DNA of 27,444 nucleotides from positions 1-27,444 of the forward strand of contig JAIRLH010000096.1 in NCBI GenBank assembly GCA_031259485.1, written 5' to 3'. The notes beneath the pieces were generated by a model. The model saw nothing but the letters and a program-made list of their open reading frames with translations. It was not told the origin of the DNA and searched no databases. Source of the DNA: Elusimicrobiota bacterium (GTDB lineage Bacteria > Elusimicrobiota > Elusimicrobia > Elusimicrobiales > Elusimicrobiaceae). Of the stretch, positions 1 to 27,334 are shown piece by piece (the first letter of the stretch is position 1; every line of letters begins with the position of its first letter). Both the position numbers and the translations under genes were made by a program.

Positions 1-110
1 ATTGCGATGCCGGATTACACTTGTCCGGCCGAAGTAATCCAGAATAAAACAAATGCTTTAAGATTTACGGCCTTGGATTGACGCCGACAAAAGCAGTCGG
101 CCCGCAATGA
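1..110. repeat. GTCAT-type REP-like doublet (BIME-like), left end truncated by the window edge
   Basis: Left unit ATTGCGA-GCCGGA/TCCGGC hairpin-GTAATCCAG (1-42). Right unit GGATTG-GCCGAC/GTCGGC hairpin-CGCAATGA (75-110). ATTGCG (1-6) and CGCAAT (103-108) are inverted termini. Confidence 0.55.
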
Positions 111-120
111 AAACATCATT

Positions 121-150
121 TCTCTCGCTCCTTGTGGGAGAGGGCGAGGG
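121..150. repeat. Degenerate CCCTCTCCC/GGGAGAGGG-type REP-like palindrome
   Basis: TCTCTCGCTCCTTGTGGGAGAGGGCGAGGG resembles the widespread CCCTCTCCC-N-GGGAGAGGG-N-GAGGG intergenic repeat (pattern recognition only). Confidence 0.4.
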
Positions 151-177
151 ATATAATCGGCTTAAAAAAATTTGATA

Positions 178-379
178 CTGTTTTTGGAAATCCGAAAGGA
201 TACGGTTTTGCGAAAGCAAAACAATAGTCAAACCAAAAACAGCTCGTTATTAGGCGTAAAGTATTGGGCATAATTACCCCGATACTTTACGCCGAGCGTT
301 TGCCGCCGAAAGGCGGCAAACCACGGCTGTTTGTTTTATGCGTTTGACTATTCATAAAACATATCAGCCGTTTTTGTTT
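178..379 (+). ncRNA. Candidate structured RNA / cis-regulatory leader of unknown family (copy A, complete)
   Basis: P1 178-187/233-242 (10 bp). P2 190-201, P3 205-222 and P5 298-321 have GAAA loops. P4 253-268/278-293. P6 323-340/353-371, whose loop 342-352 is complementary to 223-233. A U-tract follows at 371-379. A homologous diverged copy lies at 13584-13735. Confidence 0.55.
323..379 (+). terminator. Intrinsic-terminator-like hairpin (P6 of the structured element) 30 nt upstream of the pilin start
   Basis: ACGGCTG..GTTTTATG / CATAAAAC..CAGCCGT followed by TTTTGTTT. Confidence 0.45.
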
Positions 380-409
380 ATAAAAATTAAAAATAACGAG
401 GTATAATGT

Positions 410-892
410 ATGAAAAGTAAAAAAGGCTTCACGCTGGTTGAATTGCTTGTTGTTGTATTAATTATTGGTATTCTTGCGGCCATTGCTTTGCCGCAATATC
501 AAAAAGCCGTCGCAAGGACGCGCATGGCAGAATTATTCGCCTTTGTTAATATTTTTCGCAATGCGCAGGAAGAATATTATCTTATTAATGGAACTTATAC
601 GGCTGATTTTAACAAACTATATATTGACGGCTGGGAAATTGAAAACGGGATGTACAAGTTAGGTAAAAAATGGGCGGGTATGGTTGTTACAGAAAACGGG
701 GATCATTACTACGCGCAAGTCGGCATTTTAGGAAACCCTGTTCCTTATCTGGAATTTAGGCCAAGGGTAGGATATGTAGAATGTTTAATTGGAGGCGATA
801 TATCATCTCAAGACCGCCACCGTAAAATTTGTCAAATGTACACTTCAAAAACCAGGCCGGACAATGATAGATATTATATCATAGACTTCTAA
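410..892 (+). CDS. Type IV pilin-like protein (PilE-like, N-methylphenylalanine prepilin)
   Basis: Class III signal MKSKKG|FTLVELLVVVLIIGILAAIALPQY with E5, a C-terminal Cys pair, and RBS GAGG upstream. Confidence 0.92.
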   Translation: MKSKKGFTLVELLVVVLIIGILAAIALPQYQKAVARTRMAELFAFVNIFRNAQEEYYLINGTYTADFNKLYIDGWEIENGMYKLGKKWAGMVVTENGDHYYAQVGILGNPVPYLEFRPRVGYVECLIGGDISSQDRHRKICQMYTSKTRPDNDRYYIIDF

Positions 893-966
893 AATTTAAT
901 AGTTAAATAAGATTTTAAAAATAAGTTTGCAATCTTTAGGCCTAAAATATTCTTCTTTATCCGTTA

Positions 967-1075
967 AAGCTTTACAAGTTTGTCGTTCTAAACCTAAAAA
1001 CTTGAGGTCAGCCTCAACAAAGCCTGAGTCTTGATTATAGCGGGCAAAGTTCTTATCAATGGCCAAGCTGAAAAA
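967..1075 (+). pseudogene. Decayed S4 RNA-binding domain fragment, TlyA/FtsJ-methyltransferase N-terminus-like
   Basis: Reads KLYKFVVLNLK / LEVSLNKA*VLIIAGKVLINGQAEK across one frameshift (~1000) and a TGA at 1025-1027. This resembles the S4 pattern LDKxLV..SRxKAxxLIxAGxVxVNG. Confidence 0.45.
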
Positions 1076-1124
1076 ACAACCCTGTTCCTAAGCGTAGCGT
1101 CGTGGCTTTGTGCTGTCGCTGGCA

Positions 1125-1153
1125 GCCTTTAACTATTATTTAAAGGCATTTTT
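1125..1153 (+). terminator. Weak terminator-like hairpin
   Basis: GCCTTTAA (1125-1132) / TTAAAGGC (1140-1147) followed by ATTTTT. Confidence 0.3.
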
Positions 1154-1163
1154 CCTAAATTTA

Positions 1164-1192
1164 TTGTAGAATACATTATATAGTGGTATATT
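1164..1192 (+). promoter_or_regulatory. Sigma70-type promoter for the MntP-like gene
   Basis: TTGTAG, 17-nt spacer, TATATT with an extended -10 TG; RBS GAGGG at 1202-1206 and ATG at 1216. Confidence 0.55.
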
Positions 1193-1215
1193 ATTCAATG
1201 CGAGGGATACAAAGC

Positions 1216-1791
1216 ATGTCCATAATATGGCTGATTATAATTTTATTGTGTATTTCGGTCGGGTGTTTTGCAATAGGCGCCGTCTCCGGCAGCAAACTGG
1301 GCAGCGCTTACGGCAATAATGTCACTTTAAAAACTTCTTTTGTTTTCGTAGTGGCAAACCTCATCTCCCTTTCGCTTAGCTTTATCGTGGGCAAACTGCT
1401 TTATAACTGGTACGGCGGCCTGACGCAGTGGCTGGCTTTTATAATGTTGTTTATCATAGGCATAAGGTTGCTTTTGGAATCTATTGAGCGCTCTCCCAGC
1501 CTTAATTATACGGATATAGTACAGAGCAATTATCTCGTGCGCGTGGCGGTACAGGCCAGCGTGGATTCTTTTATGTTCGGCTTCACTCTGGCCTTATTCT
1601 TCGGGGACAGGATAGAAATTTTCCTGCTCGCTCTTTTGCTTTCCGCGGTGTTTAATTTCTTTATGACGATTTTCGGCCTTTCGCACGGGCACGCTTTCCC
1701 CAAAACGCTGCTTGGCAAAAGGCTTGAGCGCGCGGCCGGAGCCATTGCCGTCATCGCCGCCGTAAACATGCTTTTTAAGATTAATGGGTAA
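1216..1791 (+). CDS. mntP: Manganese efflux pump MntP (YebN/DUF204) family membrane protein, divergent
   Basis: About six hydrophobic segments, two repeats (SVGCFAIG and ASVDSFMFG), C-terminal LGKRLERAAGAI. Start moved from 1183 to the ATG at 1216 because of the RBS and promoter. Confidence 0.7.
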   Translation: MSIIWLIIILLCISVGCFAIGAVSGSKLGSAYGNNVTLKTSFVFVVANLISLSLSFIVGKLLYNWYGGLTQWLAFIMLFIIGIRLLLESIERSPSLNYTDIVQSNYLVRVAVQASVDSFMFGFTLALFFGDRIEIFLLALLLSAVFNFFMTIFGLSHGHAFPKTLLGKRLERAAGAIAVIAAVNMLFKING

Positions 1792-1810
1792 AAAGTCTCC
1801 GTACAAAACA

Positions 1811-1843
1811 ATAAAAAACGCTGCGGTTTGCAGCGTTTTTTAT
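1811..1843. terminator. Bidirectional intrinsic terminator
   Basis: ATAAAAAACGCTGC-GGTTT-GCAGCGTTTTTTAT, a 14-bp perfect stem with A and T tracts. Confidence 0.75.
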
Positions 1844-1859
1844 CAGAGGCGATAATATT

Positions 1860-2405
1860 ATGCAAACAGTATCCGCAAACCTGCCGCTCAAAAAAATTCT
1901 CATCAGCGAAGAGCAGATAATCCGCAGGGTCAAAGAGCTCGGCGCGCAGATTTCAAAAGATTACGAGGGCAAAACGCCGCTGTTTGTCTGTGTTTTGCGC
2001 GGTTCGGCCATATTTTACGCCGAGCTTGTCAAAAATATAAACACGGACTGTCATCTTGATTTTATGTGCCTGTGCTCTTACAGCGGCACGTGCTCCAGCG
2101 GCAAAGTGCGCTTTATGCTTGATTTGCGCGAGGACATAAAAAACCGCCATGTAATCATAGTGGAAGATATTATAGACACCGGCACAACGGCTAAATATAT
2201 CACGGACTTGCTGAGCACGCGCGGCCCGGCCTCGGTTGAGCTTTGTACGCTTTTGGACAAGCCTTCAAACCGCGAAGCCGCTGTGAAGCCCAGATATTGC
2301 GGATTCACGATAGAAAATGAGTTTGTCGTAGGCTACGGTCTTGATTATAATGAGCTTTACCGTAATTTACCTTTTATAGGAGTTTTTGATGAAAGTAAAC
2401 AATAA
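1860..2405 (+). CDS. hpt: Hypoxanthine phosphoribosyltransferase
   Basis: PRPP-binding VIIVEDIIDTGTT, LLDKP, FVVGYGLDYNELYRNLP. Confidence 0.96.
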   Translation: MQTVSANLPLKKILISEEQIIRRVKELGAQISKDYEGKTPLFVCVLRGSAIFYAELVKNINTDCHLDFMCLCSYSGTCSSGKVRFMLDLREDIKNRHVIIVEDIIDTGTTAKYITDLLSTRGPASVELCTLLDKPSNREAAVKPRYCGFTIENEFVVGYGLDYNELYRNLPFIGVFDESKQ

Positions 2406-4317
2406 AAAACCGATACCCCAAATCCCGTGGCGGCAGGTGCTGCTGTGGGTGATAATTTTTATAATGATGGTCTCGCTGTATTCAAAGATGGGCCAGTCCC
2501 AGGCGGCGAAGGATATGGATTATTCCGAATTCCGCGCCAAAATCGCCTCCGGCGATATTTTAAAAGTTTCCGTCGGGCAGGACAGCATTGCCGGCACGTT
2601 TAAGGACGACGGCAAAGAAAGCAAATTCAAAACGCCAAGGATACCGGACGATAACGACCTCGTGAGGGATTTGGTGTCCGCCAAAATCCCCTTTAAGGGC
2701 GAGACGGATAAAAGCTGGATTTACAGCCTTCTCATGAACGTAGGCTGGATAGCCCTGTTTTTTGCGGCGTGGTATTTTTTATTTATCCGCCCGCAGAAGA
2801 GCGACGGCAAAAGCGCGCTTAACTTCGCCAAAAGCAAAGCCAAACTTCAGGACCCGCAGGAGCAAAACATCACTTTTAAAGACGTCGCCGGCGTGGAGGA
2901 AGCTAAAGAAGAAGTGCAGGATATAATAAAATTCCTGCGCAATCCCAAGCATTTCCAGAAACTCGGCGCAAAACTGCCCAAAGGCGTGCTGCTTTACGGC
3001 GCGCCGGGCACGGGCAAAACATTGCTTGCAAAGGCCGTTGCCGGAGAGGCGAAGGTGGCGTTTTTCTCCGCCTCGGCTTCGGAATTCGTGGAGATGTTTG
3101 TAGGCGTCGGCGCGGCTCGCGTCAGGGATTTGTTCAATAACGCCAAAAAGAACGCGCCCGCGATTATTTTTGTAGACGAGCTTGACGCCGTCGGCCGCCG
3201 CCGTTTCGCCGGCATAGGCGGCGGGCACGACGAAAGGGAGCAGACTCTTAACCAACTGCTTATAGAGCTTGACGGCTTTGAATCAAAACAGGGCATACTT
3301 CTTATGGCGTCCACCAACCGGCCCGACGTGCTTGACCCGGCGCTCACTCGCCCCGGGCGTTTTGACCGGCATATCAATATCCCCGCGCCCGACATGAAGG
3401 GCCGCAAAGAAATACTTGAAGTACACGCCAAAAAAGTAAAAATGGCGCAGGACGTTGACCTTGAAACCATAGCCAAAGGCACGCCGGGTTTTGTCGGCGC
3501 GGATTTGGCCAATGTTATAAACGAGGCCGCCATACTCGCCGCGCGCCACGATAAAGAAGCCGTCGGCACGCCGGACATAGAAGAAGCCGTTGAACGCGTG
3601 ATGGCCGGCCCGCAACGCAAGAGCCGCATAATATCGGATAAGGAAAAGCGCGTAATCGCCGCGCATGAAGCCGGACACACCATAATAGCCAAAAAATCAC
3701 AACACAGCGACCCTGTGCACAAAGTTTCCATAATCCCGCGCGGGCCGGCTTTGGGCTATACGCTGCAGCTGCCTCTGGAAGATAAATATCTGGTCAGCAA
3801 AAGCGAAATTCTGGACAGGCTCACAGTCCTGCTCGGCGGCCGAGCGGCCGAGGATATTTTATTCGGGGAGATTACCACAGGCGCGCATGACGACCTTTCG
3901 CGCACCACCGCTTACGCGCGCAAAATGGTGGCCGAGCTCGGCATGAGCGACAAGCTGGGACCTATCTCGGTGCAGACTGACCAGAATGAAGTTTTCCTGG
4001 GTATGGAAATGGGCCGCCACAAAAATTATTCGGAAGATTTAGCCAAGGAAATTGATAATGAAGTGAGCCTGCTTGTAAAAGAATCCTATAACAAAGCCAA
4101 AGAAATCCTGCGCGCCAACAAAACCGCGCTGGAGACGCTTATTGCCCGCCTTATAGAAAAAGAAGTGGTTGAAGCCGCAGAAATTGACGAAATTTTGGGC
4201 ATAAAAAAAGAAGACAAAAAAACCGACAGCGCGGATATAAAGCTGGAGCAGTCTCCCGTCTGCGGCCCTGCGGGCGTGCAAAGGCTTGATAAGGAGCAGG
4301 GAGAAGCCAATGACTAA
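2389..4317 (+). CDS. ftsH: ATP-dependent zinc metalloprotease FtsH
   Basis: Two N-terminal TM segments, Walker A GAPGTGKT, Walker [36 protein letters not shown] zinc motif; AGGAG RBS before the ATG at 2389. Confidence 0.98.
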
Positions 4318-5662
4318 ATACTTCGGCACTGACGGAATACGCGCCAAAGTCGGGGACTTTCCGCTTACCGAAGATTTTGTGATAAAGCTGGGCTACTGCG
4401 CTTTGCTTGAACTCCAAAAACACGGCGACGCGCAAGACCGCGCCAGAACCGTAATTATAGCCGAGGACTCCCGCCAAAGCGGCCCGCGGTTGGCGCAGTA
4501 TCTGTCGCGCGGCATAACGGCGGCGGGTTTTGATGTGTTGCACGTCGGTATAGCGCCCACGCCGGCGGTTGCCTTTCTCACTCATAAAAAAAACGCGGTG
4601 TGCGGAATTGTGATTTCAGCCAGCCACAATCCGGCCGAGTTTAACGGTATAAAATTCTTCTCCCACACGGGCAAAAAACTTATCGAGGATATTAAAAGCC
4701 TGAGAGACACCGCAGTGGAAAATACGTCGCAAATCCCGGCGCCTGCGCCGCACGCGAAGGTAGTAAAAGACGCCGCGCTATTGTCTGAATATACTGATTT
4801 CTTAAAATCAACAGTCCCCGCCGGCATAAGTTTTAAAGGCATTAAAGCCGTGCTTGACTGCGCCAACGGCGCAAGCTATAAAACCGCGCCGCAGATTTTC
4901 AGGGAGCTGGGGGTAGAAACCATCGTGATAAACGATAAGCCCGACGGAGTCAATATCAACGATAACGCCGGCGCGCTGCACACGGAAGGAATGCAAAAAG
5001 CGGTTGCGGAAAACAAGGCTTTTATAGGCTTCTCCTTTGACGGCGACGCGGACAGGCTTATAGCCGCCGATGAAGAAGGCGGACAGCTTGACGGCGACGA
5101 TATTATGGCCGCCGCGGCGCTGCATCTCAAAAAACAAGGCAGACTGAGAGGCGGCAAAATCGCTCTGACTGTTATGACCAATCTGGGCCTTATAAACTAT
5201 CTCAAACAAAACGGCGTGGAGCCGGTGCTTACCGCGGTGGGCGATAAATATGTTTTTGAAGCGCTGGAAAAAGAAGATTTGTCGCTTGGCGGGGAGACTT
5301 CGGGCCACATCATATTCAGAGACATTCTTGGCACGGGCGACGGTACTTTGTGCGCTTTGCAGCTTTTGGCGATAGTTATTGCATCTGGCCATAAGCCCAG
5401 CTGGTTAAAAAAGCAGTGGAGCAAATATCCCTTAAAACTGATACCCGTAAAAGTATCGCGGAAGCCGCCGCTTGAAAGCGTGCCAGGGTTTGTTGGCTAC
5501 ATCGGGCAGCTTGAAGATCAAATGGGTACGCGCGGCCGTATTTTTGCGCGTTACAGCGGTACGGAGCCGCTACTGCGCATACTTGTAGAAGGCGAGGATA
5601 AAACCCAGGTGGAAGATTTTGCGCAGAAAGTTGCGGATTTTTACATACAAAAAACAAAATAA
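4310..5662 (+). CDS. glmM: Phosphoglucosamine mutase
   Basis: [16 protein letters not shown] phosphoserine motif, DGDADR metal loop, GGETSGH, RYSGTEPLLR; the ATG at 4310 overlaps the ftsH end. Confidence 0.96.
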   Translation: MTKYFGTDGIRAKVGDFPLTEDFVIKLGYCALLELQKHGDAQDRARTVIIAEDSRQSGPRLAQYLSRGITAAGFDVLHVGIAPTPAVAFLTHKKNAVCGIVISASHNPAEFNGIKFFSHTGKKLIEDIKSLRDTAVENTSQIPAPAPHAKVVKDAALLSEYTDFLKSTVPAGISFKGIKAVLDCANGASYKTAPQIFRELGVETIVINDKPDGVNINDNAGALHTEGMQKAVAENKAFIGFSFDGDADRLIAADEEGGQLDGDDIMAAAALHLKKQGRLRGGKIALTVMTNLGLINYLKQNGVEPVLTAVGDKYVFEALEKEDLSLGGETSGHIIFRDILGTGDGTLCALQLLAIVIASGHKPSWLKKQWSKYPLKLIPVKVSRKPPLESVPGFVGYIGQLEDQMGTRGRIFARYSGTEPLLRILVEGEDKTQVEDFAQKVADFYIQKTK

Positions 5663-5682
5663 AATTGCGGAGATGAAAATTT

Positions 5683-6408
5683 ATGACGGTAAAATTAGGC
5701 GTTAACATAGATCATATTGCGACTTTAAGGCAGGCGCGCGGCGGCAATGCGCCCGACCCTTTCGCAGCGGCTGAAGCCTGCCTCGCGCTGGGCGCGCGGT
5801 ACATTGTGCTCCATATACGCCGCGACAGACGCCACGTACAGGAAAGCGATTTAGAAAGGCTTACAAAAAAATACCGTCCTCATATACATCTTGAAATGGC
5901 CAATACAAAAGAAATGGTGGATATGGCGCTCAAATACAAACCCGGCTCCGTCTGCTTCGTGCCGGAATATCCTAACGAGCTTACCACCTCCGGCGGCTTA
6001 AAACTGGACGATAAAAATATCGCCCTGCTGCGCTCGGCCGCGGCAAGGCTTAAAAAATCGGACATAGAAGTAAGTCTCTTCATAAATCCAACCGCGAATG
6101 ATGTCCGCAGAGCCAAAAAGGCCGGTGCGGCTATAGTTGAACTTTGCACCAAAGATTACAGCGAAGCTAAGACTGAGCGCCAAAGGCTTAAGCTGCTGGA
6201 AGATATTTCAATGTCCTCAATTCTCGCTAAAGAAATAGGCCTGAGCGTGCACAGCGGGCACGGACTTACTACGGATAATGTCGGCGCCGTTGCCGCCGTC
6301 AACGGCATGGAATGCCTTAATATCGGCTTTTCAATAATAGCGCGGGCGGTAATTTCCGGCCTGCCGCAGGCCGTGCTTGAAATGAAGCAGGCAATAAACG
6401 CGCGCTGA
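5683..6408 (+). CDS. pdxJ: Pyridoxine 5'-phosphate synthase
   Basis: LGVNIDHIATLRQAR, H-x-R-x-DRRH, LEMA, VPE..TTSGGL, GHGL, LNIG. Confidence 0.95.
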   Translation: MTVKLGVNIDHIATLRQARGGNAPDPFAAAEACLALGARYIVLHIRRDRRHVQESDLERLTKKYRPHIHLEMANTKEMVDMALKYKPGSVCFVPEYPNELTTSGGLKLDDKNIALLRSAAARLKKSDIEVSLFINPTANDVRRAKKAGAAIVELCTKDYSEAKTERQRLKLLEDISMSSILAKEIGLSVHSGHGLTTDNVGAVAAVNGMECLNIGFSIIARAVISGLPQAVLEMKQAINAR

Positions 6409-6441
6409 CTGCGGGCGGGATTAGGAGCGTAATACAACCCT

Positions 6442-8241
6442 ATGTGCGGCATAATAGCCTACAGCGGCGGCAGAAACGGCGCCGCTCTCATAATAGATGG
6501 GCTTAAAAAACTTGAATACCGCGGATATGATTCCGCCGGTTTGGCTTACGGCGCGTACGGTAAAATAAATATTTTGAAAGCCGTGGGTAAAGTCAATAAT
6601 CTTGAAGAGTTGGTTTTAAAAAACAAAGTAAATTCCGCCTGCCTCATAGGACACACGCGCTGGGCCACGCACGGCAAACCCTCTAAGGAAAATTCGCACC
6701 CGCACACGGGCCAGCCGGGCGCCGTTGCGCTTGTGCATAACGGCATAATAGAAAATTATCTTGAGCTTAAACAGAAGTTAACCGCCAAAGGACACAAATT
6801 CAAATCGCAAACGGACAGCGAAGTCGCGGCCCATCTGATAGAAGAGAATCTTAAAAGAACTCTTTCCTTTCCCGCCGCTTTTGAAGCCGCTGTAAAGCAG
6901 CTTAAAGGCGCGTACGCTCTGGTTGCCATGTATAATAGAGAGCCGGGCGTTCTTATGGCCGCCAAAAAACAAAGTCCGCTTGTGCTTGGCATAGGCAAAG
7001 GCGAATACTTTTTGGCTTCCGACGTGCCGGCCTTTTTACAGCATACTAAGAGGGCCGTTTTTCTGGAGGACGGGGATATCGCCTGCATAATCCCGCGCGG
7101 CTATAAAATAACCGCCGCGGACGGCGGGCCCGCAAAGCGCAAAATCCATACTATCGCTTGGGATAATACAAGCGCGCAAAAATGCGGCTATAAACACTTC
7201 ATGCTCAAGGAAATTTTTGACCAGCCGCAGGCCGTTGAAGATACCTTGAGAACATTGCCTAATGACATCAAAAAATCTTTCGGTATATCGGCGCGGCGCG
7301 CAAAAGAAATAAAGGGGATTTATCTTGTCGCATGCGGCACGGCTTACCATGCGGCGCTGGCAGCAAAATATTTTTTGGAGCATTTTGCCAAACTGCCCGT
7401 GGAAGCCGACACGGCTTCGGAATTTAAATACCGCGACGTAAATTTCCAGAAAGACTGGCTTTTCTGCGCGGTATCGCAATCGGGCGAGACGGCGGATACT
7501 CTTGCCGCGCTGCTCAATGCTAAAAAGGCGGGGCTGCGCACGCTGGGAGTGTGCAATGTGCTGGGCTCGGCCATTACGCGGGCGAGCGATTTCACTGTTT
7601 ACACGCGCTGCGGGCCGGAAATCAGCGTGGCTTCCACCAAGGCTTTTACCTCTCAACTCACGGTGCTTTACGCGCTGTCGCTGCAGCTTGGTTTTGCCCG
7701 TGGCGCGCTGTCCAAGCCGCAGTTTAACGAGCTTTATAAAGAACTGTTGCGCCTGCCCGCGCTGCTTGCCGCCGCACTCAAGAAGCAGGAACAGGTCAAG
7801 AAAACCGCGCGCGGTATTTTCAGGAAAAAATCTTTTATTTTCCTCGGCCGCAATGCGTGCTTTCCGCTCGCGCTGGAAGGCGCGCTGAAACTCAAGGAAG
7901 TTTCTTATTTACATGCGGAGGGTTTTCCGGCGGGCGAAATTAAACACGGCCCCATAGCAGTGATAGAACGCGGCACGCCTGTATTCGCGCTTGCGCCCAA
8001 AGGATTTCTGGAGGGGAAAATACTTTCTTCCTGTCAGGAAGTCTCCGCGCGCGGCGCAATGCTTATACTGCTCACAAACGACGCGGCGCAAAACGGTCTT
8101 TTGCTGCCGCGCGTAAGCGAATATCTTTTCCCCGTCATAGCGGCCGTGCCGCTGCAACTATTTGCCTACTATATAGCGGCTTTCAACGGGTGCGATATTG
8201 ACCGCCCCCGCAACCTTGCCAAGAGCGTCACGGTGGAATGA
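6442..8241 (+). CDS. glmS: Glutamine-fructose-6-phosphate aminotransferase
   Basis: N-terminal MCGI (catalytic Cys), LEYRGYDSAG, GHTRWATHG, SQSGETADT, EGALKLKE, PRNLAKSVTVE. Confidence 0.98.
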   Translation: MCGIIAYSGGRNGAALIIDGLKKLEYRGYDSAGLAYGAYGKINILKAVGKVNNLEELVLKNKVNSACLIGHTRWATHGKPSKENSHPHTGQPGAVALVHNGIIENYLELKQKLTAKGHKFKSQTDSEVAAHLIEENLKRTLSFPAAFEAAVKQLKGAYALVAMYNREPGVLMAAKKQSPLVLGIGKGEYFLASDVPAFLQHTKRAVFLEDGDIACIIPRGYKITAADGGPAKRKIHTIAWDNTSAQKCGYKHFMLKEIFDQPQAVEDTLRTLPNDIKKSFGISARRAKEIKGIYLVACGTAYHAALAAKYFLEHFAKLPVEADTASEFKYRDVNFQKDWLFCAVSQSGETADTLAALLNAKKAGLRTLGVCNVLGSAITRASDFTVYTRCGPEISVASTKAFTSQLTVLYALSLQLGFARGALSKPQFNELYKELLRLPALLAAALKKQEQVKKTARGIFRKKSFIFLGRNACFPLALEGALKLKEVSYLHAEGFPAGEIKHGPIAVIERGTPVFALAPKGFLEGKILSSCQEVSARGAMLILLTNDAAQNGLLLPRVSEYLFPVIAAVPLQLFAYYIAAFNGCDIDRPRNLAKSVTVE

Positions 8242-8609
8242 TGCAAATCATAAACATAGGCATTGATATAGAGGAAGTGGCCCGAATAGCGCGCCTCAAG
8301 AAAGCCGCGCTTGCCCGCGTGTTTACAGAGACCGAACTTGCCTACAGCCTGCCCAAAAAAAACGCCGCTCAGCACTTGGCGGCGCGCTTTGCGGCAAAGG
8401 AAGCAATTTTTAAAGCATTGCCTTTTGACGGCGTCGCTCTCAAAAAAATAGAGATTGTAAAGGATAAAACCGGCAAACCGCTGGCCATACTGCACGATGC
8501 GCGGGCAAAGGACATAGGGCTCAAAATATCGCTTTCCCATACACGGAAATACGCTGCGGCTTTTGCGGTTTCGTACAGAATTTGCCGTTTAAAAAAATGC
8601 AAAAAATAA
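8238..8609 (+). CDS. acpS: Holo-ACP synthase (4'-phosphopantetheinyl transferase)
   Basis: GIDIEEV, LAARFAAKEAIFKAL, GKP, ISLSHT; start at 8238 or 8241. Confidence 0.94.
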   Translation: MMQIINIGIDIEEVARIARLKKAALARVFTETELAYSLPKKNAAQHLAARFAAKEAIFKALPFDGVALKKIEIVKDKTGKPLAILHDARAKDIGLKISLSHTRKYAAAFAVSYRICRLKKCKK

Positions 8610-9463
8610 ATAAGGCTTTCGTCAAAAAACATTTCCCCGCGCGGCCGGCGGATTCCTATAAAAATCTCAACGGGCGCGTGCTTATTGTGGCCGGCTCGGC
8701 CGATATGCCGGGCGCGGCCGTGTTATGCGCGCGCGCGTGCTTTGCGGCGGGCGCTGGGCTCGTTACGCTTGCCGCGCCGCACGCCGTATATAATGCGGCG
8801 GTTAATGCCGTTCCTCAGGCAATTATTTTGAAAATGCCGCAAAGTGCGCGCGCAGCTATGGCAAAAATAATTGCCCGCAATAAAAGTGTTCCGCATGATT
8901 TGATGCTTATAGGCCCGGGTTTGGATGAGAGCTGGGCAGTCATGACTTCGTACCTGCTTGACAAAACCAAATTGCCGGCGGTCATAGATGCCTCTTCTTT
9001 AAACGCGCTTGCCGCGGCCGGCGCTGATAAGCTGGCAAAAGATATTCCTCATATTCTAACGCCGCATAAGGGTGAAATGCGTCGTTTGCTTGGCGGGCCC
9101 GCAAATGCGGCAAGCGCAGCCGAACTGGCCCAAACAACCGGCGCGGTTTGCCTGCTCAAAGGCCCGGGCACTATAGTCAGCGGCGCAGGCATAACTATGC
9201 GGAATACTACGGGCAACAGCGGGCTTGCCAAAGCCGGCAGCGGTGATATTTTGTCCGGCATTATCGCCGGAGTTTGGGGTCAGCTTATTCATGTTGAAGA
9301 CAGCCGCCGGTTGCAGCAAAAAGCCTTTGACGCCGCCGCCGCCGGCGTCTGGTTGCACGGCGTTGCGGCGGACGCGGCAGTCAAAAAAATAAGCAAAAAT
9401 TCGCTTGCGGCGGAAGATATTCTGGCCGCCCTGCCTTCGGCAATGAGGCAAATAACCGGATAA
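8597..9463 (+). CDS. nnrD: ADP-dependent NAD(P)H-hydrate dehydratase (stand-alone YjeF C-terminal domain)
   Basis: GRVLIVAGS..MPGAA, IGPGL, ILTPHKGE, LKG, AGSGDILSG, LHG; no epimerase domain; ATG at 8597 preferred over the ORF-track start at 8582. Confidence 0.9.
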   Translation: MQKINKAFVKKHFPARPADSYKNLNGRVLIVAGSADMPGAAVLCARACFAAGAGLVTLAAPHAVYNAAVNAVPQAIILKMPQSARAAMAKIIARNKSVPHDLMLIGPGLDESWAVMTSYLLDKTKLPAVIDASSLNALAAAGADKLAKDIPHILTPHKGEMRRLLGGPANAASAAELAQTTGAVCLLKGPGTIVSGAGITMRNTTGNSGLAKAGSGDILSGIIAGVWGQLIHVEDSRRLQQKAFDAAAAGVWLHGVAADAAVKKISKNSLAAEDILAALPSAMRQITG

Positions 9464-9474
9464 AATTATAAAAT

Positions 9475-10365
9475 ATGACTATGCTAATATTCCTCGTATT
9501 TTTAATCGTGCTTTTGGGTGCTCTGGTTTTAGTTTATATCGCCTATAAAGAAAGCGGGCGCATAATAAACCGCTGCGGCGGGCGCAAGCCGCTTGCCGCG
9601 TACCCAGACCAGTTTAAAGTCCCTTTTGAAAACGTGATTTTTAAAAATTCCGACGCAATAACGCTGAAAGGCTGGTTCATACCCGCGCCGGAGGAAAGCA
9701 AAAAAACCATAATCCTTATGCACGGGTGGAATATGAACAAAGGCAGCATAATGCCGGCCACGTTATTTCTGCGCGAGAGCGGCTACAATTTATTTTATTT
9801 TGACTTCCGCTCCTGCGGAGAAAGCGGTGACGGCAAAACCTCAGTCGGGTATCTTGAAACGCGGGACGCAGAAGCCGCGGTTGAAACTCTGCTCAAAACG
9901 CGGCCCGAGCGATCGCATGAAATCGGCCTTTACGGTATTTCTATGGGCGCGGCGGTCGCGGTTTACACGGCGGCGCATACTCCGCAGGTGCGCGCCGTAG
10001 TGGCCGAGGCCTGTTATTATTCTTACGAAAAGGTCGTCGCAAGATGGGCGAAAGAACATAAATCCGCGCCGTACTTCCCGCTTGTGGCTTTAACTTTGTT
10101 CTTCGTGCGAAAACGTTTGGGCATGGATCCGGAGACTTTCAGCCCGCGCCATAATATTAAAAAACTGTGCGGTAAAGCTGTGTTTTTAATCAACGGGGCG
10201 GATGATGCCTTAGCGCCGCGCCACGACGCGCGCAAACTCTTCGCCGCCGCCGCCGAACCTAAGCAATTATGGATTGTGGCCAATGCCGCGCACACGGAAG
10301 CGGCCGAAGTCGCCGGCCGCCAGTACGAAAACAAAATCGGGCAGTTTTATACGAAATACGTATAA
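9475..10365 (+). CDS. Membrane-anchored alpha/beta hydrolase (serine aminopeptidase S33-like)
   Basis: N-terminal TM anchor, LMHGW, FDFRSCGESG, nucleophile elbow GISMG, acid NGADD, His in AAHT. Confidence 0.88.
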   Translation: MTMLIFLVFLIVLLGALVLVYIAYKESGRIINRCGGRKPLAAYPDQFKVPFENVIFKNSDAITLKGWFIPAPEESKKTIILMHGWNMNKGSIMPATLFLRESGYNLFYFDFRSCGESGDGKTSVGYLETRDAEAAVETLLKTRPERSHEIGLYGISMGAAVAVYTAAHTPQVRAVVAEACYYSYEKVVARWAKEHKSAPYFPLVALTLFFVRKRLGMDPETFSPRHNIKKLCGKAVFLINGADDALAPRHDARKLFAAAAEPKQLWIVANAAHTEAAEVAGRQYENKIGQFYTKYV

Positions 10366-10425
10366 TTTTATACCGACGGTCCCGATGCCGACGTATTATA
10401 TTAATAAAACAAAAAAGGAGTTATT

Positions 10426-11097
10426 ATGAGGCAAAGCAAACACATTTTCCCTTTAGCAGTATTGGCGCTGGCGTTGCTGGCGGGATGCGCTACCCCCTCA
10501 ACACCTGATGCCAAAACGCTGGGAGTAACTTCCGCGCATTATAATAAAGATTTTGCCAAAACAACGCGCGGGCTTGTAATATTCGGAGCGACGAATGAAA
10601 TTAATGAACTCGGCAATATGTGGTTTAACGCGGAACTGTATGACAGCAATAAAAAACGTTATTGCGTAGCGAGTATTCCTAACCCGCATACGCCGGCAGC
10701 CCTAATGCTGCCGGAAGGCGAATATTATTTTGACGACATGAAAATTTCAAGCGGTAATTCATATATGAACTTCGGCAAACGCTTTCGTGTCGCTTTTAAA
10801 GTTAATAAAGGCGAAGCCGTTTATATAGGGCATTTTTATTTGACGGGGGAAAGAAACAAAAAAACAGGTAAAACAAAAATTGCGCGTTTTTTAGAAGCAA
10901 CCCCGAACGTCTTCCAAATCAACGGGAAAGTTATAGACGACTCGCAGATTATACGGAAAACGCTTGAAAAAATCGGCCAAGAAACAGGCAGCCATATAAC
11001 GACTAGATTAGCGACTCTGGTGGACACAAAACCCTACATAATGCCCAAAAGCATTGAAGAAGCCGCCGCGCAGGCAAAAGAACGGGAGGAGAAATAA
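10426..11097 (+). CDS. Hypothetical lipoprotein
   Basis: Lipobox LAG|C (Cys21), AAGGAG RBS, beta-rich body. Confidence 0.75.
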   Translation: MRQSKHIFPLAVLALALLAGCATPSTPDAKTLGVTSAHYNKDFAKTTRGLVIFGATNEINELGNMWFNAELYDSNKKRYCVASIPNPHTPAALMLPEGEYYFDDMKISSGNSYMNFGKRFRVAFKVNKGEAVYIGHFYLTGERNKKTGKTKIARFLEATPNVFQINGKVIDDSQIIRKTLEKIGQETGSHITTRLATLVDTKPYIMPKSIEEAAAQAKEREEK

Positions 11098-11490
11098 ATG
11101 AAAAATATTAAATATGTTTTCACTTTGCTGATTTGTCTGTCGTTTACAGCCTGTGCCGCATCAAGAGGCAGCAGTTATCTTTCAAGCGCGGCAAAAGCGC
11201 AGAAACAAATAGCCGCGCGTAATTTGGGCCGGCAAGCTACCAAAGACGCGGTTGAAAGTTATTGGGGCGCGCCCGCATTTGCGTCCCAAACCCCGCAGGG
11301 TACCCGCGCAGAATACGAATATGTTAAGGTGTCGGAAAGCCCGCTGAAAGTAATCCCCATATTGGGTTTTGCTTTTAGCGACAACTACAGCTATAAACGC
11401 AACTTATTAGTATATGACTATGATACAAGCGATAATGTTATAGACTACGCCATAATAAGCGATGGTGGCGCTTATCCTCCTAAAATATAA
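11098..11490 (+). CDS. Small lipoprotein, SmpA/BamE/OsmE-like fold suspected
   Basis: Lipobox FTA|C (Cys19), TKDAVESYWGAP..EYEY resembling the TKxxVxxxLGxP motif; TAA-ATG coupling to the upstream gene. Confidence 0.65.
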   Translation: MKNIKYVFTLLICLSFTACAASRGSSYLSSAAKAQKQIAARNLGRQATKDAVESYWGAPAFASQTPQGTRAEYEYVKVSESPLKVIPILGFAFSDNYSYKRNLLVYDYDTSDNVIDYAIISDGGAYPPKI

Positions 11491-11547
11491 TCAAGTTCGG
11501 AATTTTAGCAAAATCCTTTTATTAAAGGTTTTTAAAGCGTATATCTG

Positions 11548-11784
11548 TTATAACCGCCTCTCCAAGCTGTTAATGTCGCTTGCAGCGGCGACATATATGC
11601 CGGTGCGCAGATAAAACAAATTATCGGCGTTTTCCAAACTCTTAGTCATAATAATCGTGTTTGCAACTCTGCTTCTTAGAACCGCTTTTTTATGCTGCGC
11701 TATTGCGACGGCGGCCAATATTCCAATGATGAGAACCGCTGCCAGGACTTCAATTAAAGTAAAGGCCTTTTTATTGGGGGACAT
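11548..11784 (-). pseudogene. Truncated type IV pilin-like ORF (78 aa, N-terminal helix only)
   Basis: KKA|FTLIEVLAAVLIIGILAAVAIAQHKKAV aligns with the N-terminus of the 410-892 pilin but stops before the globular domain; GAGG RBS present. Confidence 0.65.
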
Positions 11785-11801
11785 TTGTTTAACCTCGCAA
11801 G

Positions 11802-11834
11802 CTTTAGTATAAACCGCTATTTTTTATACTAAAG
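11802..11834. promoter_or_regulatory. 12-9-12 inverted repeat in the divergent pilin/gcvT intergenic region
   Basis: CTTTAGTATAAA-CCGCTATTT-TTTATACTAAAG; function inferred, not shown. Confidence 0.3.
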
Positions 11835-11902
11835 TATTAGCATTTTTGCAATGACGATAATAGCCGCAAAAATAAAATGCTTTCTAATTGCGGCAAAGAC
11901 AG

Positions 11903-11931
11903 GTGCAATGGTAGAAAAAATACTATATAAT
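11903..11931 (+). promoter_or_regulatory. Possible sigma70 promoter for gcvT-gcvH
   Basis: Perfect TATAAT (11926-11931) with a weak -35 GTGCAA 17 nt upstream. Confidence 0.3.
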
Positions 11932-11966
11932 CTAAATATATATTGTTTAAGGAGTTTCCCAACCCT

Positions 11967-13046
11967 ATGGAACACACAATAAGAAAGACCGCGCTTTACG
12001 ACGCCTGCGTAAAATCTGGCGGCAAGATGGTTGATTTCCACGGCTGGCTGCTGCCCATGCAGTTTGAAGGCATCATAGCCGAGCATAAAGCCGTAAGGGA
12101 AAACGCCGGCATGTTTGACGTCTCCCACATGGGCCAGATTTTTTTTGAAGGCGCAGACGCTCATAAACTGCTTCAGACCGTAGCCACCAATAATTTCAAA
12201 AACACGACCGGCGCGGGCGCGTATTCGCACGCGCTTAACGAAAGGGGCGGCGTGGTGGACGATATTATCGCCTTCTGTATGACGCCGCAGAAGTTTTTGG
12301 TCGTAGTAAATTCGGCCGCGAAAGATAAGGATTACGCGTGGTTTGCAAAAATCGCCGAAGAGGGCAAATTTAACGCGAAGGTAGTTGACGCTTCCGATAA
12401 TTACGCTATGCTTGCGTTGCAGGGCCCCAAAGCGCTGGATATCCTGACAAAACTTGACGCGGATATAAAAAATCTGCCGCGCTTTAACATAAAAGAAGCC
12501 AAAATATTAGGCGGCGACGTGATAATCACCCGCACCGGCTACACCGGCGAGGACGGCTGCGAAATCATGGGCCCCGCCGACGTGATGAATAAACTTTTTG
12601 ACTGGGCCCTGCAAAACGGCTTTAAACCCTGCGGACTGGGCTCGCGCGATATTTTGCGTTTTGAAGCCGGCTATCTTTTGAGCGGCAGCGATATGGACGA
12701 AACCAGAACGCCTTACGAGGCTTCCTTCGGCTGGGTCGTAAAAATGAACAAAGACGTTGATTTTATCGGCAAACCCGCGCTGATCAAACAAAAAGAAGAA
12801 GGCATAAAAGAAAAATGGCAGGGCTTTAAGCTGGACGGCGGCATTGCGCGCGAGGGAGCTTTGATTTACAAAGACGCAAAGCAAATCGGCAAACTGACCA
12901 GCGGCGTGTTTTCGCCTTTGTTTAAGGCTATTTGCGCGGGCTACGCTCCGGCTGACTTGCCCGAAGGCTCCGAAGTTGAAATTGAAATACGCGGCAAAAT
13001 GGTTCCGGCAAAATCGGTCAAAATGCCGTTTTACAAAATCTTATAA
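11967..13046 (+). CDS. gcvT: Glycine cleavage system aminomethyltransferase T
   Basis: GGKMVDFHGWLLPMQF, GMFDVSHMG, LALQGP, TRTGYTGEDG, GLGSRDILRFEAG; AGGAG RBS before the ATG at 11967. Confidence 0.97.
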   Translation: MEHTIRKTALYDACVKSGGKMVDFHGWLLPMQFEGIIAEHKAVRENAGMFDVSHMGQIFFEGADAHKLLQTVATNNFKNTTGAGAYSHALNERGGVVDDIIAFCMTPQKFLVVVNSAAKDKDYAWFAKIAEEGKFNAKVVDASDNYAMLALQGPKALDILTKLDADIKNLPRFNIKEAKILGGDVIITRTGYTGEDGCEIMGPADVMNKLFDWALQNGFKPCGLGSRDILRFEAGYLLSGSDMDETRTPYEASFGWVVKMNKDVDFIGKPALIKQKEEGIKEKWQGFKLDGGIAREGALIYKDAKQIGKLTSGVFSPLFKAICAGYAPADLPEGSEVEIEIRGKMVPAKSVKMPFYKIL

Positions 13047-13072
13047 ATCTAAAAAAGAAGCGAGGTATCAAA

Positions 13073-13447
13073 ATGTACAATCAGGAAAACTGTAAGTTTG
13101 CAAAAACCCACGAATGGGCCTTTATTGAGGGGGACACTGCCGTCGTGGGCATAAGCGACCACGCCCAGCACGAAATAAGCGATATCGTTTTTGTTGAACT
13201 GCCCAAAGTTGGCGCGAAGGTTGAAGCCGGCAAAAGGGCCGCGGTGATAGAATCAGTAAAATCCGCGTCGGATATTTACGCCCCCGTATCGGGCGAGGTT
13301 ATTGCCGTCAATGACGCTCTTACCGGCGACCCTGCCCTCGTCAACAAAGCTCCGCACGGCGAAGGCTGGATATTTAAAGTCAAAATGTCCAATCCCGCGG
13401 AAGCAAATTCGCTGGCGTCTTTTGCGGATTATAAGGCAAGTTTATAA
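13073..13447 (+). CDS. gcvH: Glycine cleavage system H protein
   Basis: KTHEW, VGISDHAQ, lipoyl-Lys motif ESVKSASDIYAPVSGEV, GWIFK. Confidence 0.97.
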   Translation: MYNQENCKFAKTHEWAFIEGDTAVVGISDHAQHEISDIVFVELPKVGAKVEAGKRAAVIESVKSASDIYAPVSGEVIAVNDALTGDPALVNKAPHGEGWIFKVKMSNPAEANSLASFADYKASL

Positions 13448-13495
13448 ATAATTTTGGTAAAATAAATTTAGTAGTAAAAAATGGTCGTTAATGTT

Positions 13496-13566
13496 GTAAT
13501 ACCCGCGAGAGGGTATCTAGGCTGGAGATGTAAACGGATTCCCGATTAAGACTTTTGGGAATGACA
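13496..13566. repeat. dRS3-like (GTCATTCCC...GGGAATCC) REP doublet
   Basis: Degenerate left unit GTAATACCC-GCGAGA-GGGTATCTAG (13496-13520) and inverted right unit GGATTCCC-N13-GGGAATGACA (13536-13566). Neisseria dRS3 is ATTCCC-N8-GGGAAT. Confidence 0.6.
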
Positions 13567-13583
13567 AAAATTGTTTAAGCAAC

Positions 13584-13735
13584 GTTTTTGGGTGTTCCGC
13601 GCAAGCGGAACCCGCTTTTGAGAAATCAAAAGCTCGAGTTAGACCTAAAAACAGTCCGTTATTAAGCACAAGACGCGGAGGGTAGCTCCCCGAGTGTCTT
13701 GTGCTGAATGTTTGCCGTCCGTACGGACGGCAAAC
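13584..13735 (+). ncRNA. Candidate structured RNA, copy B (3' part lost at the fold)
   Basis: P1 13584-13592/13644-13652, P2 13594-13611 (GCAA loop), P3 13614-13633 (GAAA loop), P4 13665-13674/13696-13705, P5 13710-13735. Shares AAAAACAG, CGTTATTA, CCCCGA and GTTTGCCG with copy A. Confidence 0.5.
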
Positions 13736-13861
13736 ATTCAGCACAAGACACTCGGGGAGCTACCCTCCGCGTCTTGTGCTTAATAACGGACTGTTTTTAG
13801 GTCTAACTCGAGCTTTTGATTTCTCAAAAGCGGGTTCCGCTTGCGCGGAACACCCAAAAAC
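13710..13861 (-). ncRNA. Mirror of structured element copy B
   Basis: Reverse complement of 13584-13735. Confidence 0.45.
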
Positions 13862-13878
13862 GTTGCTTAAACAATTTT

Positions 13879-13949
13879 TGTCATTCCCAAAAGTCTTAAT
13901 CGGGAATCCGTTTACATCTCCAGCCTAGATACCCTCTCGCGGGTATTAC
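13879..13949. repeat. Mirror of the dRS3-like REP doublet
   Basis: Reverse complement of 13496-13566. Confidence 0.55.
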
Positions 13950-13997
13950 AACATTAACGACCATTTTTTACTACTAAATTTATTTTACCAAAATTAT

Positions 13998-14372
13998 TTA
14001 TAAACTTGCCTTATAATCCGCAAAAGACGCCAGCGAATTTGCTTCCGCGGGATTGGACATTTTGACTTTAAATATCCAGCCTTCGCCGTGCGGAGCTTTG
14101 TTGACGAGGGCAGGGTCGCCGGTAAGAGCGTCATTGACGGCAATAACCTCGCCCGATACGGGGGCGTAAATATCCGACGCGGATTTTACTGATTCTATCA
14201 CCGCGGCCCTTTTGCCGGCTTCAACCTTCGCGCCAACTTTGGGCAGTTCAACAAAAACGATATCGCTTATTTCGTGCTGGGCGTGGTCGCTTATGCCCAC
14301 GACGGCAGTGTCCCCCTCAATAAAGGCCCATTCGTGGGTTTTTGCAAACTTACAGTTTTCCTGATTGTACAT
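13998..14372 (-). CDS. gcvH: Glycine cleavage H protein (mirror copy)
   Basis: Identical translation to 13073-13447. Confidence 0.95.
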   Translation of the reverse strand: MYNQENCKFAKTHEWAFIEGDTAVVGISDHAQHEISDIVFVELPKVGAKVEAGKRAAVIESVKSASDIYAPVSGEVIAVNDALTGDPALVNKAPHGEGWIFKVKMSNPAEANSLASFADYKASL

Positions 14373-14398
14373 TTTGATACCTCGCTTCTTTTTTAGAT

Positions 14399-15478
14399 TT
14401 ATAAGATTTTGTAAAACGGCATTTTGACCGATTTTGCCGGAACCATTTTGCCGCGTATTTCAATTTCAACTTCGGAGCCTTCGGGCAAGTCAGCCGGAGC
14501 GTAGCCCGCGCAAATAGCCTTAAACAAAGGCGAAAACACGCCGCTGGTCAGTTTGCCGATTTGCTTTGCGTCTTTGTAAATCAAAGCTCCCTCGCGCGCA
14601 ATGCCGCCGTCCAGCTTAAAGCCCTGCCATTTTTCTTTTATGCCTTCTTCTTTTTGTTTGATCAGCGCGGGTTTGCCGATAAAATCAACGTCTTTGTTCA
14701 TTTTTACGACCCAGCCGAAGGAAGCCTCGTAAGGCGTTCTGGTTTCGTCCATATCGCTGCCGCTCAAAAGATAGCCGGCTTCAAAACGCAAAATATCGCG
14801 CGAGCCCAGTCCGCAGGGTTTAAAGCCGTTTTGCAGGGCCCAGTCAAAAAGTTTATTCATCACGTCGGCGGGGCCCATGATTTCGCAGCCGTCCTCGCCG
14901 GTGTAGCCGGTGCGGGTGATTATCACGTCGCCGCCTAATATTTTGGCTTCTTTTATGTTAAAGCGCGGCAGATTTTTTATATCCGCGTCAAGTTTTGTCA
15001 GGATATCCAGCGCTTTGGGGCCCTGCAACGCAAGCATAGCGTAATTATCGGAAGCGTCAACTACCTTCGCGTTAAATTTGCCCTCTTCGGCGATTTTTGC
15101 AAACCACGCGTAATCCTTATCTTTCGCGGCCGAATTTACTACGACCAAAAACTTCTGCGGCGTCATACAGAAGGCGATAATATCGTCCACCACGCCGCCC
15201 CTTTCGTTAAGCGCGTGCGAATACGCGCCCGCGCCGGTCGTGTTTTTGAAATTATTGGTGGCTACGGTCTGAAGCAGTTTATGAGCGTCTGCGCCTTCAA
15301 AAAAAATCTGGCCCATGTGGGAGACGTCAAACATGCCGGCGTTTTCCCTTACGGCTTTATGCTCGGCTATGATGCCTTCAAACTGCATGGGCAGCAGCCA
15401 GCCGTGGAAATCAACCATCTTGCCGCCAGATTTTACGCAGGCGTCGTAAAGCGCGGTCTTTCTTATTGTGTGTTCCAT
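14399..15478 (-). CDS. gcvT: Glycine cleavage T protein (mirror copy)
   Basis: Identical translation to 11967-13046. Confidence 0.95.
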   Translation of the reverse strand: MEHTIRKTALYDACVKSGGKMVDFHGWLLPMQFEGIIAEHKAVRENAGMFDVSHMGQIFFEGADAHKLLQTVATNNFKNTTGAGAYSHALNERGGVVDDIIAFCMTPQKFLVVVNSAAKDKDYAWFAKIAEEGKFNAKVVDASDNYAMLALQGPKALDILTKLDADIKNLPRFNIKEAKILGGDVIITRTGYTGEDGCEIMGPADVMNKLFDWALQNGFKPCGLGSRDILRFEAGYLLSGSDMDETRTPYEASFGWVVKMNKDVDFIGKPALIKQKEEGIKEKWQGFKLDGGIAREGALIYKDAKQIGKLTSGVFSPLFKAICAGYAPADLPEGSEVEIEIRGKMVPAKSVKMPFYKIL

Positions 15479-27065: not shown

Positions 27066-27267
27066 AAACAAAAACGGCTGATATGTTTTATGAATAGTCA
27101 AACGCATAAAACAAACAGCCGTGGTTTGCCGCCTTTCGGCGGCAAACGCTCGGCGTAAAGTATCGGGGTAATTATGCCCAATACTTTACGCCTAATAACG
27201 AGCTGTTTTTGGTTTGACTATTGTTTTGCTTTCGCAAAACCGTATCCTTTCGGATTTCCAAAAACAG
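27066..27267 (-). ncRNA. Mirror of structured element copy A
   Basis: Reverse complement of 178-379. Confidence 0.5.
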
Positions 27268-27334
27268 TATCAAATTTTTTTAAGCCGATTATATCCCTCG
27301 CCCTCTCCCACAAGGAGCGAGAGAAATGATGTTT

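Follow-up and report, generated by a model that had tools for sequence, protein, structure and literature searches.

A paralogous family of leader RNAs with two conserved alternative folds, probably transcription attenuators, upstream of pilin-like and other genes in the Elusimicrobiaceae

The DNA analysed here, referred to as the window, is the whole 27,444 nt of contig JAIRLH010000096.1 (assembly GCA_031259485.1) from an Elusimicrobiota bacterium of the family Elusimicrobiaceae. Near its left end, an RNA element (copy 1) lies upstream of an ORF encoding a pilin-like protein. It belongs to a family of leader RNAs about 205 nt in length and is itself located at 178–379 on the + strand. An earlier note on this DNA, made by inspection alone, had described six stems, GAAA loops, and an exact 11-nt complement between 223–233 and 342–352; all of these are in the sequence as it placed them. 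The features are listed below, with pair counts made on A2, an alignment of 91 distinct copies to the covariance model R1, itself built from the 18 full copies found in the same genome (alignment A1).

152–157, + strand: candidate -10 box TATAAT, about 20 nt before P1, with a putative transcription start predicted from it
178–187, + strand: P1 5' strand, CTGTTTTTGG, paired in 96.8% of cells and conserved in sequence, its changes mostly U-A to U-G
190–201, + strand: P2 hairpin with a GAAA loop, varying in length and sequence among copies, 3 of 3 modelled pairs with compensatory changes
205–222, + strand: P3 hairpin with a GAAA loop, conserved in sequence throughout the family, loop GAAA or GAUA in 74 of 91 copies
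223–233, + strand: linker J3/1, AATAGTCAAAC, variable, exact 11-nt complement of 342–352, 10 of 10 pairs with compensatory changes
233–242, + strand: P1 3' strand, partner of 178–187
233–247, + strand: P1 3' strand plus CTCGT, with 178–187 (P1) or 323–340 (inner antiterminator helix) as partner
243–252, + strand: conserved J1/4 segment, CTCGTTATTA, of which 243–251 is complementary to 392–400
253–293, + strand: P4 hairpin of 16 bp, 16 of 16 pairs with compensatory changes
296–322, + strand: P5 hairpin (298–321, with a GAAA loop) and an extra pair, 10 of 10 pairs with compensatory changes
324–379, + strand: P6, an intrinsic terminator, with 5' arm 324–340, loop 341–352, 3' arm 353–370, and U-tract from 371
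223–233 with 342–352, 234–235 with 339–340, 237–243 with 326–332, and 245–247 with 323–325, + strand: antiterminator pairs of copy 1
392–412, + strand: ribosome-binding region, AATAACGAGG, with GAGG at 398–401 and ATG at 410–412
410–892, + strand: downstream gene for a 160-aa pilin-like protein with an N-terminal methylation motif (PF07963 at 36.8 bits, cut-off 21.2)
13581–13722, + strand: copy 2, truncated, with P1, P2, P3, linker, P4, and the P5 5' arm, ending at the mirror point
27066–27268, - strand: mirror image of copy 1 in the other palindromic half, no independent copy

The entire window is its own reverse complement, with 0 mismatches, and is the sole palindromic contig among the 200 of this genome. 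The unique DNA is 1–13722, and the centre of symmetry (13722/13723) falls in the P5 apical loop of copy 2. A second copy had been claimed at 13584–13735. It is genuine over 13581–13722, and its P4 does have compensated changes at 6 of 10 pairs, as described, but the second half of its P5 (13723–13735) is mirror sequence, and P6, with the loop partner of the linker, is missing. A P6 loop complementary to the copy 2 linker was sought in the genome assembly, and none is assembled there. Logan contigs from the likely source run, a termite-gut metagenome, give a depth of 7–8 to about 13550 when placed on positions 1–14500; among the Logan contigs listed none bridges the mirror point, and the palindrome is neither confirmed nor refuted by them. 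On the simplest reading, it is likely a fold-back artefact at a natural hairpin.

Several details of copy 1 recur across the family. P5 has an extra closing pair, G296-C322, which spans a bulged C297 and was missed by RNAalifold; among the 91 copies it is A-U in 46, G-C in 42, and G-U in two. The P5 loops are of the GNRA or UNCG type in 52 copies of 91. In copy 1, TTTTT (371–375) follows directly after P6, and a run of at least four T residues is found after P6 in 87 of the 91. A simple terminator scan passes over this hairpin, whose loop is longer than 8 nt. The folding energy of copy 1 is -90 kcal/mol (RNAfold; z = -9.2 relative to shuffled sequences), and its minus strand folds comparably (z = -9.7). 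Because both strands have z near -9, the choice of strand is impossible by energy alone.

The sequenced genome (1.17 Mb, 70% complete) has 18 full and about seven partial copies by BLAST, nhmmer, and R1, so that the multi-copy family proposed in the earlier note is real but is not limited to the two copies seen there. Identity to copy 1 ranges over 69–82%, and many of the copies are at the ends of contigs. In the covariance-model search of the Elusimicrobiota that had also been proposed, R1 matches were found in all 24 other species of the genus that were searched first, with from 1 to at least 58 copies each, and in 130 of 145 Elusimicrobiaceae genomes, representing six of ten genera. Most genomes of the two large genera have the element, whereas one complete genome of 1.6 Mb in the genus Elusimicrobium has none. 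The highest density is at least 58 copies in a 1.5-Mb genome. Carriers, named by an exact 19-mer scan followed by R1, include termite-gut Elusimicrobiota MAGs, Elusimicrobiaceae from sheep, goat, reindeer, and human gut, Avelusimicrobium, and Elusimicrobium posterum Dip510. R1 matches also occur in nine of 44 genomes of one further family in the same phylum, outside the order (E 1e-17 to 1e-31); R1 gave none in 27 other families.

As had been supposed, the element corresponds to no family in Rfam 15 or in the literature searched. None of the 4227 Rfam 15 models reaches its gathering threshold anywhere in the window, and with the cut-off relaxed to E = 10 there is still no hit overlapping 178–379; the only strong sub-threshold matches are to microRNA hairpin models, at the artificial palindrome centre (13668–13777). 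No description of the leader family was found in the literature searched, supplements included.

Truncated copies are also found inside contigs. One at C141:4260–4371 consists of the 5' half, from P1 to the P4 5' arm, and another at C145:6883–7016 of the 3' half, with P5 and a P6 whose stem is degraded. Some copies are decaying.

The structure with P1 through P6 all formed, here called the stop fold, is well supported by covariation. In A2, which was fitted to a model of this same fold from the own-genome copies and whose members are paralogues of shared ancestry, standard pairs occupy 96.5% of cells, compared with 40–50% when the partners are slid, and 47 of the 62 pairs show compensatory changes. 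No shuffle attains any of the pairing or covariation measures. Every pair of P2, P3, P4, and P5 covaries. Among the helices, near-absence of covariation is limited to P1 and the base of P6, as would be expected of strands that must serve two partners. The strand is also clear at this level: R1 scores 186 bits on the + strand and 26 on the - strand, and changes from U-A to U-G are frequent in the + strand reading. Since the G-U pairs, the GNRA and UUCG loops, and the U-tract are all strand-specific, the RNA is read from the + strand, in line with the selection at the RNA level to which the earlier note had pointed. These elements form a genuine family of structured RNAs, covarying and strand-specific.

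The linker and its partner in the P6 loop are hypervariable, and they vary together. Of 65 parsed copies, 61 have a perfect Watson-Crick run of 7–13 bp, most commonly 8 or 10 bp, between their own linker and P6 loop; the complement is absent in the other four. Linkers compared with the loops of different copies give a mean run of 3.9, so that the agreement within copies greatly exceeds chance, and there are 64 different linker sequences among the 65 copies. This complementarity does not end at the loop but runs on, from the linker into the P1 3' strand and CUCGU on one side and into the P6 5' arm on the other. The result is a second, read-through fold, in which 223–247 pairs with 323–352 as a single helix of about 23 bp around P4 and P5, the P6 5' arm and loop doubling as the 3' strand of an antiterminator. 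This helix is incompatible with both P1 and the terminator. Counted on A2, although that alignment was fitted to the stop fold instead, the antiterminator helices are paired in 89.5% (outer) and 90.1% and 99.2% (inner) of cells. All 10 outer pairs show compensatory changes, and at each of the seven central outer positions (A2 columns 89–95) all four Watson-Crick pair types occur. The family has two conserved alternative structures.

Folding predictions agree with this and separate the two states by length of transcript. When RNAs are cut just before the P6 3' arm, RNAfold predicts the antiterminator for 52 of 54 copies, with a mean advantage of 8.0 kcal/mol over the P1 state; at full length, P1 and the terminator form in 53 of 54, and the stop fold is favoured by 6.5 ± 2.6 kcal/mol. 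The copy of the cultured Elusimicrobium posterum (L061:2661–2869, minus strand) behaves in the same two-fold way. So does a shorter variant of 168 nt (C199:1275–1442, minus strand), whose four strands all differ in sequence and in which one hairpin takes the place of P4 and P5; it also has a pilin-like gene downstream.

The pairing of linker and loop had been read in the earlier note as a long-range loop pseudoknot. The pairing itself stands, but it appears better placed as the outer helix of the antiterminator, where it excludes P1 and P6 rather than coexisting with them. Its covariation taken alone fits a tertiary pseudoknot and a nested helix equally well. In copy 1, however, a true pseudoknot would engage 11 of the 12 P6 loop nucleotides with the hairpin closed, and in the 10-bp class just 2 + 1 loop nucleotides would be left over. 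In H-type pseudoknot geometry, so few loop nucleotides would be too short to span a helix of 8–11 bp beside a closed hairpin. As modelled, it is more economical to take the linker-loop pairing as the outer part of a nested antiterminator helix, exclusive with P1 and P6.

The outer helix also has very few G-U pairs, 18 of 743 paired cells (2.4%) as against 150 of 834 (18%) in distal P4. This hypervariable, low-G-U helix occupies A2 columns 87–97 and 234–244 (223–233 and 342–352 in the window), and every one of its columns shows compensatory change. Strong selection on a short toehold could account for this, as could template switching in which one arm serves to correct the other.

In most copies a co-oriented gene start lies 30–90 nt past the terminator, consistent with the cis-regulatory role that had been suggested, and these genes are mainly pilin-like. 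Within the own genome, 12 pilin-like gene starts, counted by a GFTLIE-type N-terminal motif and including mirror duplicates of contig C38, are at most 250 nt downstream of an element; of the 62 such motifs in the genome, no others have a leader at this distance. Other downstream genes there encode a lipoprotein, a 601-aa secreted protein, and membrane proteins, and four copies are followed by REP-like repeats. In relatives, a zinc-ribbon/TM2-like membrane protein and a glycosyltransferase-like gene are also found downstream.

The zinc-ribbon protein recurs in genomes with few leaders. In those with just one to four copies (L041, L042, L050, and L061, including E. posterum), one leader precedes a conserved protein beginning MALIKCKECGK, which has a zinc ribbon at its N terminus together with a TM2-like membrane domain. 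Within the leader family, such a locus may be old and stable. The protein was considered as a possible regulator and dropped, given its TM2-like membrane domain and the lack of a counterpart adjoining elements in the own genome.

The J1/4 segment provides a possible connection to translation in some copies. In copy 1 it includes CUCGUUAU, the complement of AUAACGAG, which overlaps the Shine-Dalgarno (SD) site, and in the minimum-energy fold of 176–440 positions 243–251 are paired with 392–400. A complement of at least 8 nt that could mask the SD site is present in only 17 of the 91 copies, including that of E. posterum. The genome has 18 ATAACGAGG sites, of which seven follow an element and 11 do not adjoin one. 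From these predicted pairings, J1/4 may mask the SD site in copy 1 and in some other copies. Pairing of the linker or loop with flanking sequence (the ribosome-binding site or the 5' leader) was also considered and rejected, as the flanks of a copy score the same as those of other copies.

Upstream, an alignment of 73 copies shows a TA(T/C/A)AAT-like box 6–9 nt before P1 in most of them; a -35 element was sought upstream of the copies, and none was convincing. Many copies also have a small hairpin 30–60 nt before P1, after an SD-like AAGGAG and a mini-ORF of 3–5 codons, such as TTG TTA ATG TAA, or ATG CAG GGT TAA in E. posterum. This arrangement was seen in contigs C7, C98, C105, C157, C59, C20, and C57 and in L061 (E. 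posterum), and copy 1 is without it. The hairpin and mini-ORF may specify a leader peptide or belong to the promoter region.

Taken together, copy 1 is probably an attenuator of transcription that acts in cis from the 5' leader of the pilin-like gene, and a member of a large paralogous Elusimicrobiaceae family that would work in the same way; this reading draws on the computed alternative folds, their covariation, the terminator, the gene context, and the distribution. As in attenuators generally, a terminator stands before a co-oriented gene, and a conserved pairing ties up its 5' arm. In the stop fold, P1 would close the P1-P2-P3 junction, its 5' strand (178–187) serving as an anti-antiterminator, and P6 with its U-tract would terminate transcription a little short of the ribosome-binding site. 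In the read-through fold, with 223–247 paired to 323–352, neither P1 nor the terminator could form. The linker would act as a toehold: the P6 loop, as it emerges, would pair with the linker and displace the P1 5' strand. If the linker does act in this way, read-through would therefore be the probable default. Termination would then need a factor, most likely a protein or an RNA, that makes the conserved P1-P2-P3 domain more stable or blocks access to the toehold. The nucleotides of the P1-P2-P3 junction are not conserved, so this domain has no obvious ligand pocket. In copy 1 and some others, the stop fold would also free CUCGUUAU for masking of the SD site, as an added translational layer; in the read-through fold, CUCGU would be engaged in the antiterminator and the ribosome-binding site left free.

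Other roles for the same structures were weighed against attenuation by a protein or RNA factor. One is a metabolite or ion riboswitch, with its ligand pocket not in the upstream domain but in the three-way junction of the read-through fold (antiterminator, P4, and P5), where binding would lock read-through and switch the gene on. Conservation there extends to the junction nucleotides (UAUYA and GA), the base of each of the P4 and P5 stems, and the extra covarying pair, and the layout fits a transcriptional expression platform. Even so, a riboswitch seems unlikely, considering that the downstream genes (pilin-like, lipoprotein, membrane, and glycosyltransferase) share an envelope or surface theme only and no metabolic one, that 1 to at least 58 copies per genome would be unusual, and that no Rfam aptamer matches even at E up to 10. 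A stable, independently transcribed small RNA, compacted by a tertiary pseudoknot and acting in trans or as a protein scaffold, its position next to genes being incidental, is no more probable than the riboswitch. The possible -10-like box of its own, the strong terminator, and the diversity of downstream genes would suit such an RNA, and the linker-loop pairs would support a pseudoknot equally well. Apart from the tight loop geometry described above, it leaves unexplained both the further 12–14 conserved pairs that join the P1 3' strand to the P6 5' arm and the missing covariation in P1 and the P6 base, and it does not lead one to expect that most copies would be co-oriented with a gene starting 30–90 nt away.

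The possibility that the element acts as DNA, as a MITE, a REP-like repeat, or an invertible segment whose hairpins and 8–11 bp inverted repeats function at that level, with the RNA structure merely following from them, is more remote than either of these. It would find some support in the range of copy numbers among species of one genus (1 to at least 58), in the frequent position of copies at contig ends and beside REP-like GTCATTCCC repeats, and in the low G-U content of the outer helix relative to P4. But at 69–82% identity to copy 1 every helix has been kept through compensatory changes, and the G-U pairs, GNRA and UUCG loops, and U-tract all point to one strand. No terminal inverted repeats or target duplications were seen at the ends of the conserved block, and recombinase sites would be expected to be conserved, not different in each copy.

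The closest published system to this probable attenuator is cATTpLS20, a zipper-type transcriptional attenuator of the Bacillus subtilis plasmid pLS20, which the element resembles in the way it works without being a member (Gonzalez-Alvarez et al., Nucleic Acids Res 2026, PMC13401043). That system has been tested experimentally: the antiterminator forms by default, encloses a central structure, and excludes both outer hairpins, the energies of the folds being similar; the upstream stem is the part most conserved in sequence, and the suspected trigger is a protein or an antisense RNA (PMC13401043). Its antiterminator extends one long, imperfect central stem (ext-SL-3), and it lies before conAn1 of conjugation operons on Gram-positive plasmids (PMC13401043). 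The strand logic is the same in the Elusimicrobiaceae element, where a zipper pairing is found in copy 1 (223–247 with 323–352) and family-wide, but there is no relation in sequence and the phylum is different. The genes concerned also differ, chromosomal pilin-like and surface genes here in contrast to conjugation operons. In the main family the antiterminator closes a three-way junction with P4 and P5 rather than extending one stem, and a single central hairpin is found only in the short C199 variant. Unlike cATTpLS20, the element has an upstream three-way junction and an outer helix that changes from copy to copy, and its copies number in the dozens per genome.

Two other kinds of leader share parts of this design. 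The pyr attenuators of Bacillus subtilis, with PyrR, are leaders with a protein-bound anti-antiterminator, an antiterminator, and a terminator. There, as proposed here, a stabilized 5' structure blocks the antiterminator and leads to the terminator, and the 5' domain is conserved in sequence, as expected for a protein site; the element, however, has no match to the Rfam PyrR binding-site model, and the genes controlled are unrelated. In Clostridioides difficile, a c-di-GMP-II riboswitch precedes pilA1, a type IV pilin gene. Both are structured leaders before a pilin gene in which a terminator competes with an antiterminator, but the element differs from known riboswitch classes in matching no Rfam aptamer, in giving no indication of a ligand, and in its copy number and the diversity of its genes.

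No description of how pilin-like genes are regulated in gut Elusimicrobia was found in the literature searched. These bacteria have very many such genes, and the leader family would be a main layer of control for their cell-surface proteins. It would extend zipper-type attenuation from Gram-positive plasmids to the chromosomal genes of a distant phylum, and the proposed toehold helix that is different in every copy would be a feature added to those in the cATTpLS20 report. The family also offers a natural system well suited to tests of co-transcriptional strand displacement, with copies in a cultured strain, Elusimicrobium posterum Dip510.

It is conceivable, if quite doubtful, that the linker and loop of each copy also form an address. 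A terminated leader in the stop fold would expose both the linker and the loop segments and could pair only with nascent RNA from its own locus, blocking the toehold and forcing further termination. If so, each of the dozens of pilin-like genes would be under feedback from its own leader RNA alone, without cross-talk among paralogues, and the scarcity of G-U pairs and the 64 different sequences in 65 copies would reflect selection against cross-reacting leaders.

A few further observations concern the surroundings of the leaders. REP-like inverted doublets, GTCATTCCC / GGGAATGAC, often flank them, on the upstream side as well as in the stretch from the terminator to the next gene; examples are at 13496–13566 in the window and downstream of elements in contigs C59, C160, C27, and C145. 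Two pilin-like genes behind leaders have early stop codons. In contig C7 (about 314–340), TAA takes the place of the Leu codon of GFTLIE in a gene directly behind a leader, and at L056 (contig C190 of the related genome G013) TAA is the second codon. These may be pseudogenes or switched-off variants. Also in G013, about nine copies are followed, just past the terminator, by a second conserved module of two hairpins starting ATTGGACAAAAAGCAGTTATTTTCTCTC (L062, L087, L095, L103, L106, L110, L123, and L133).
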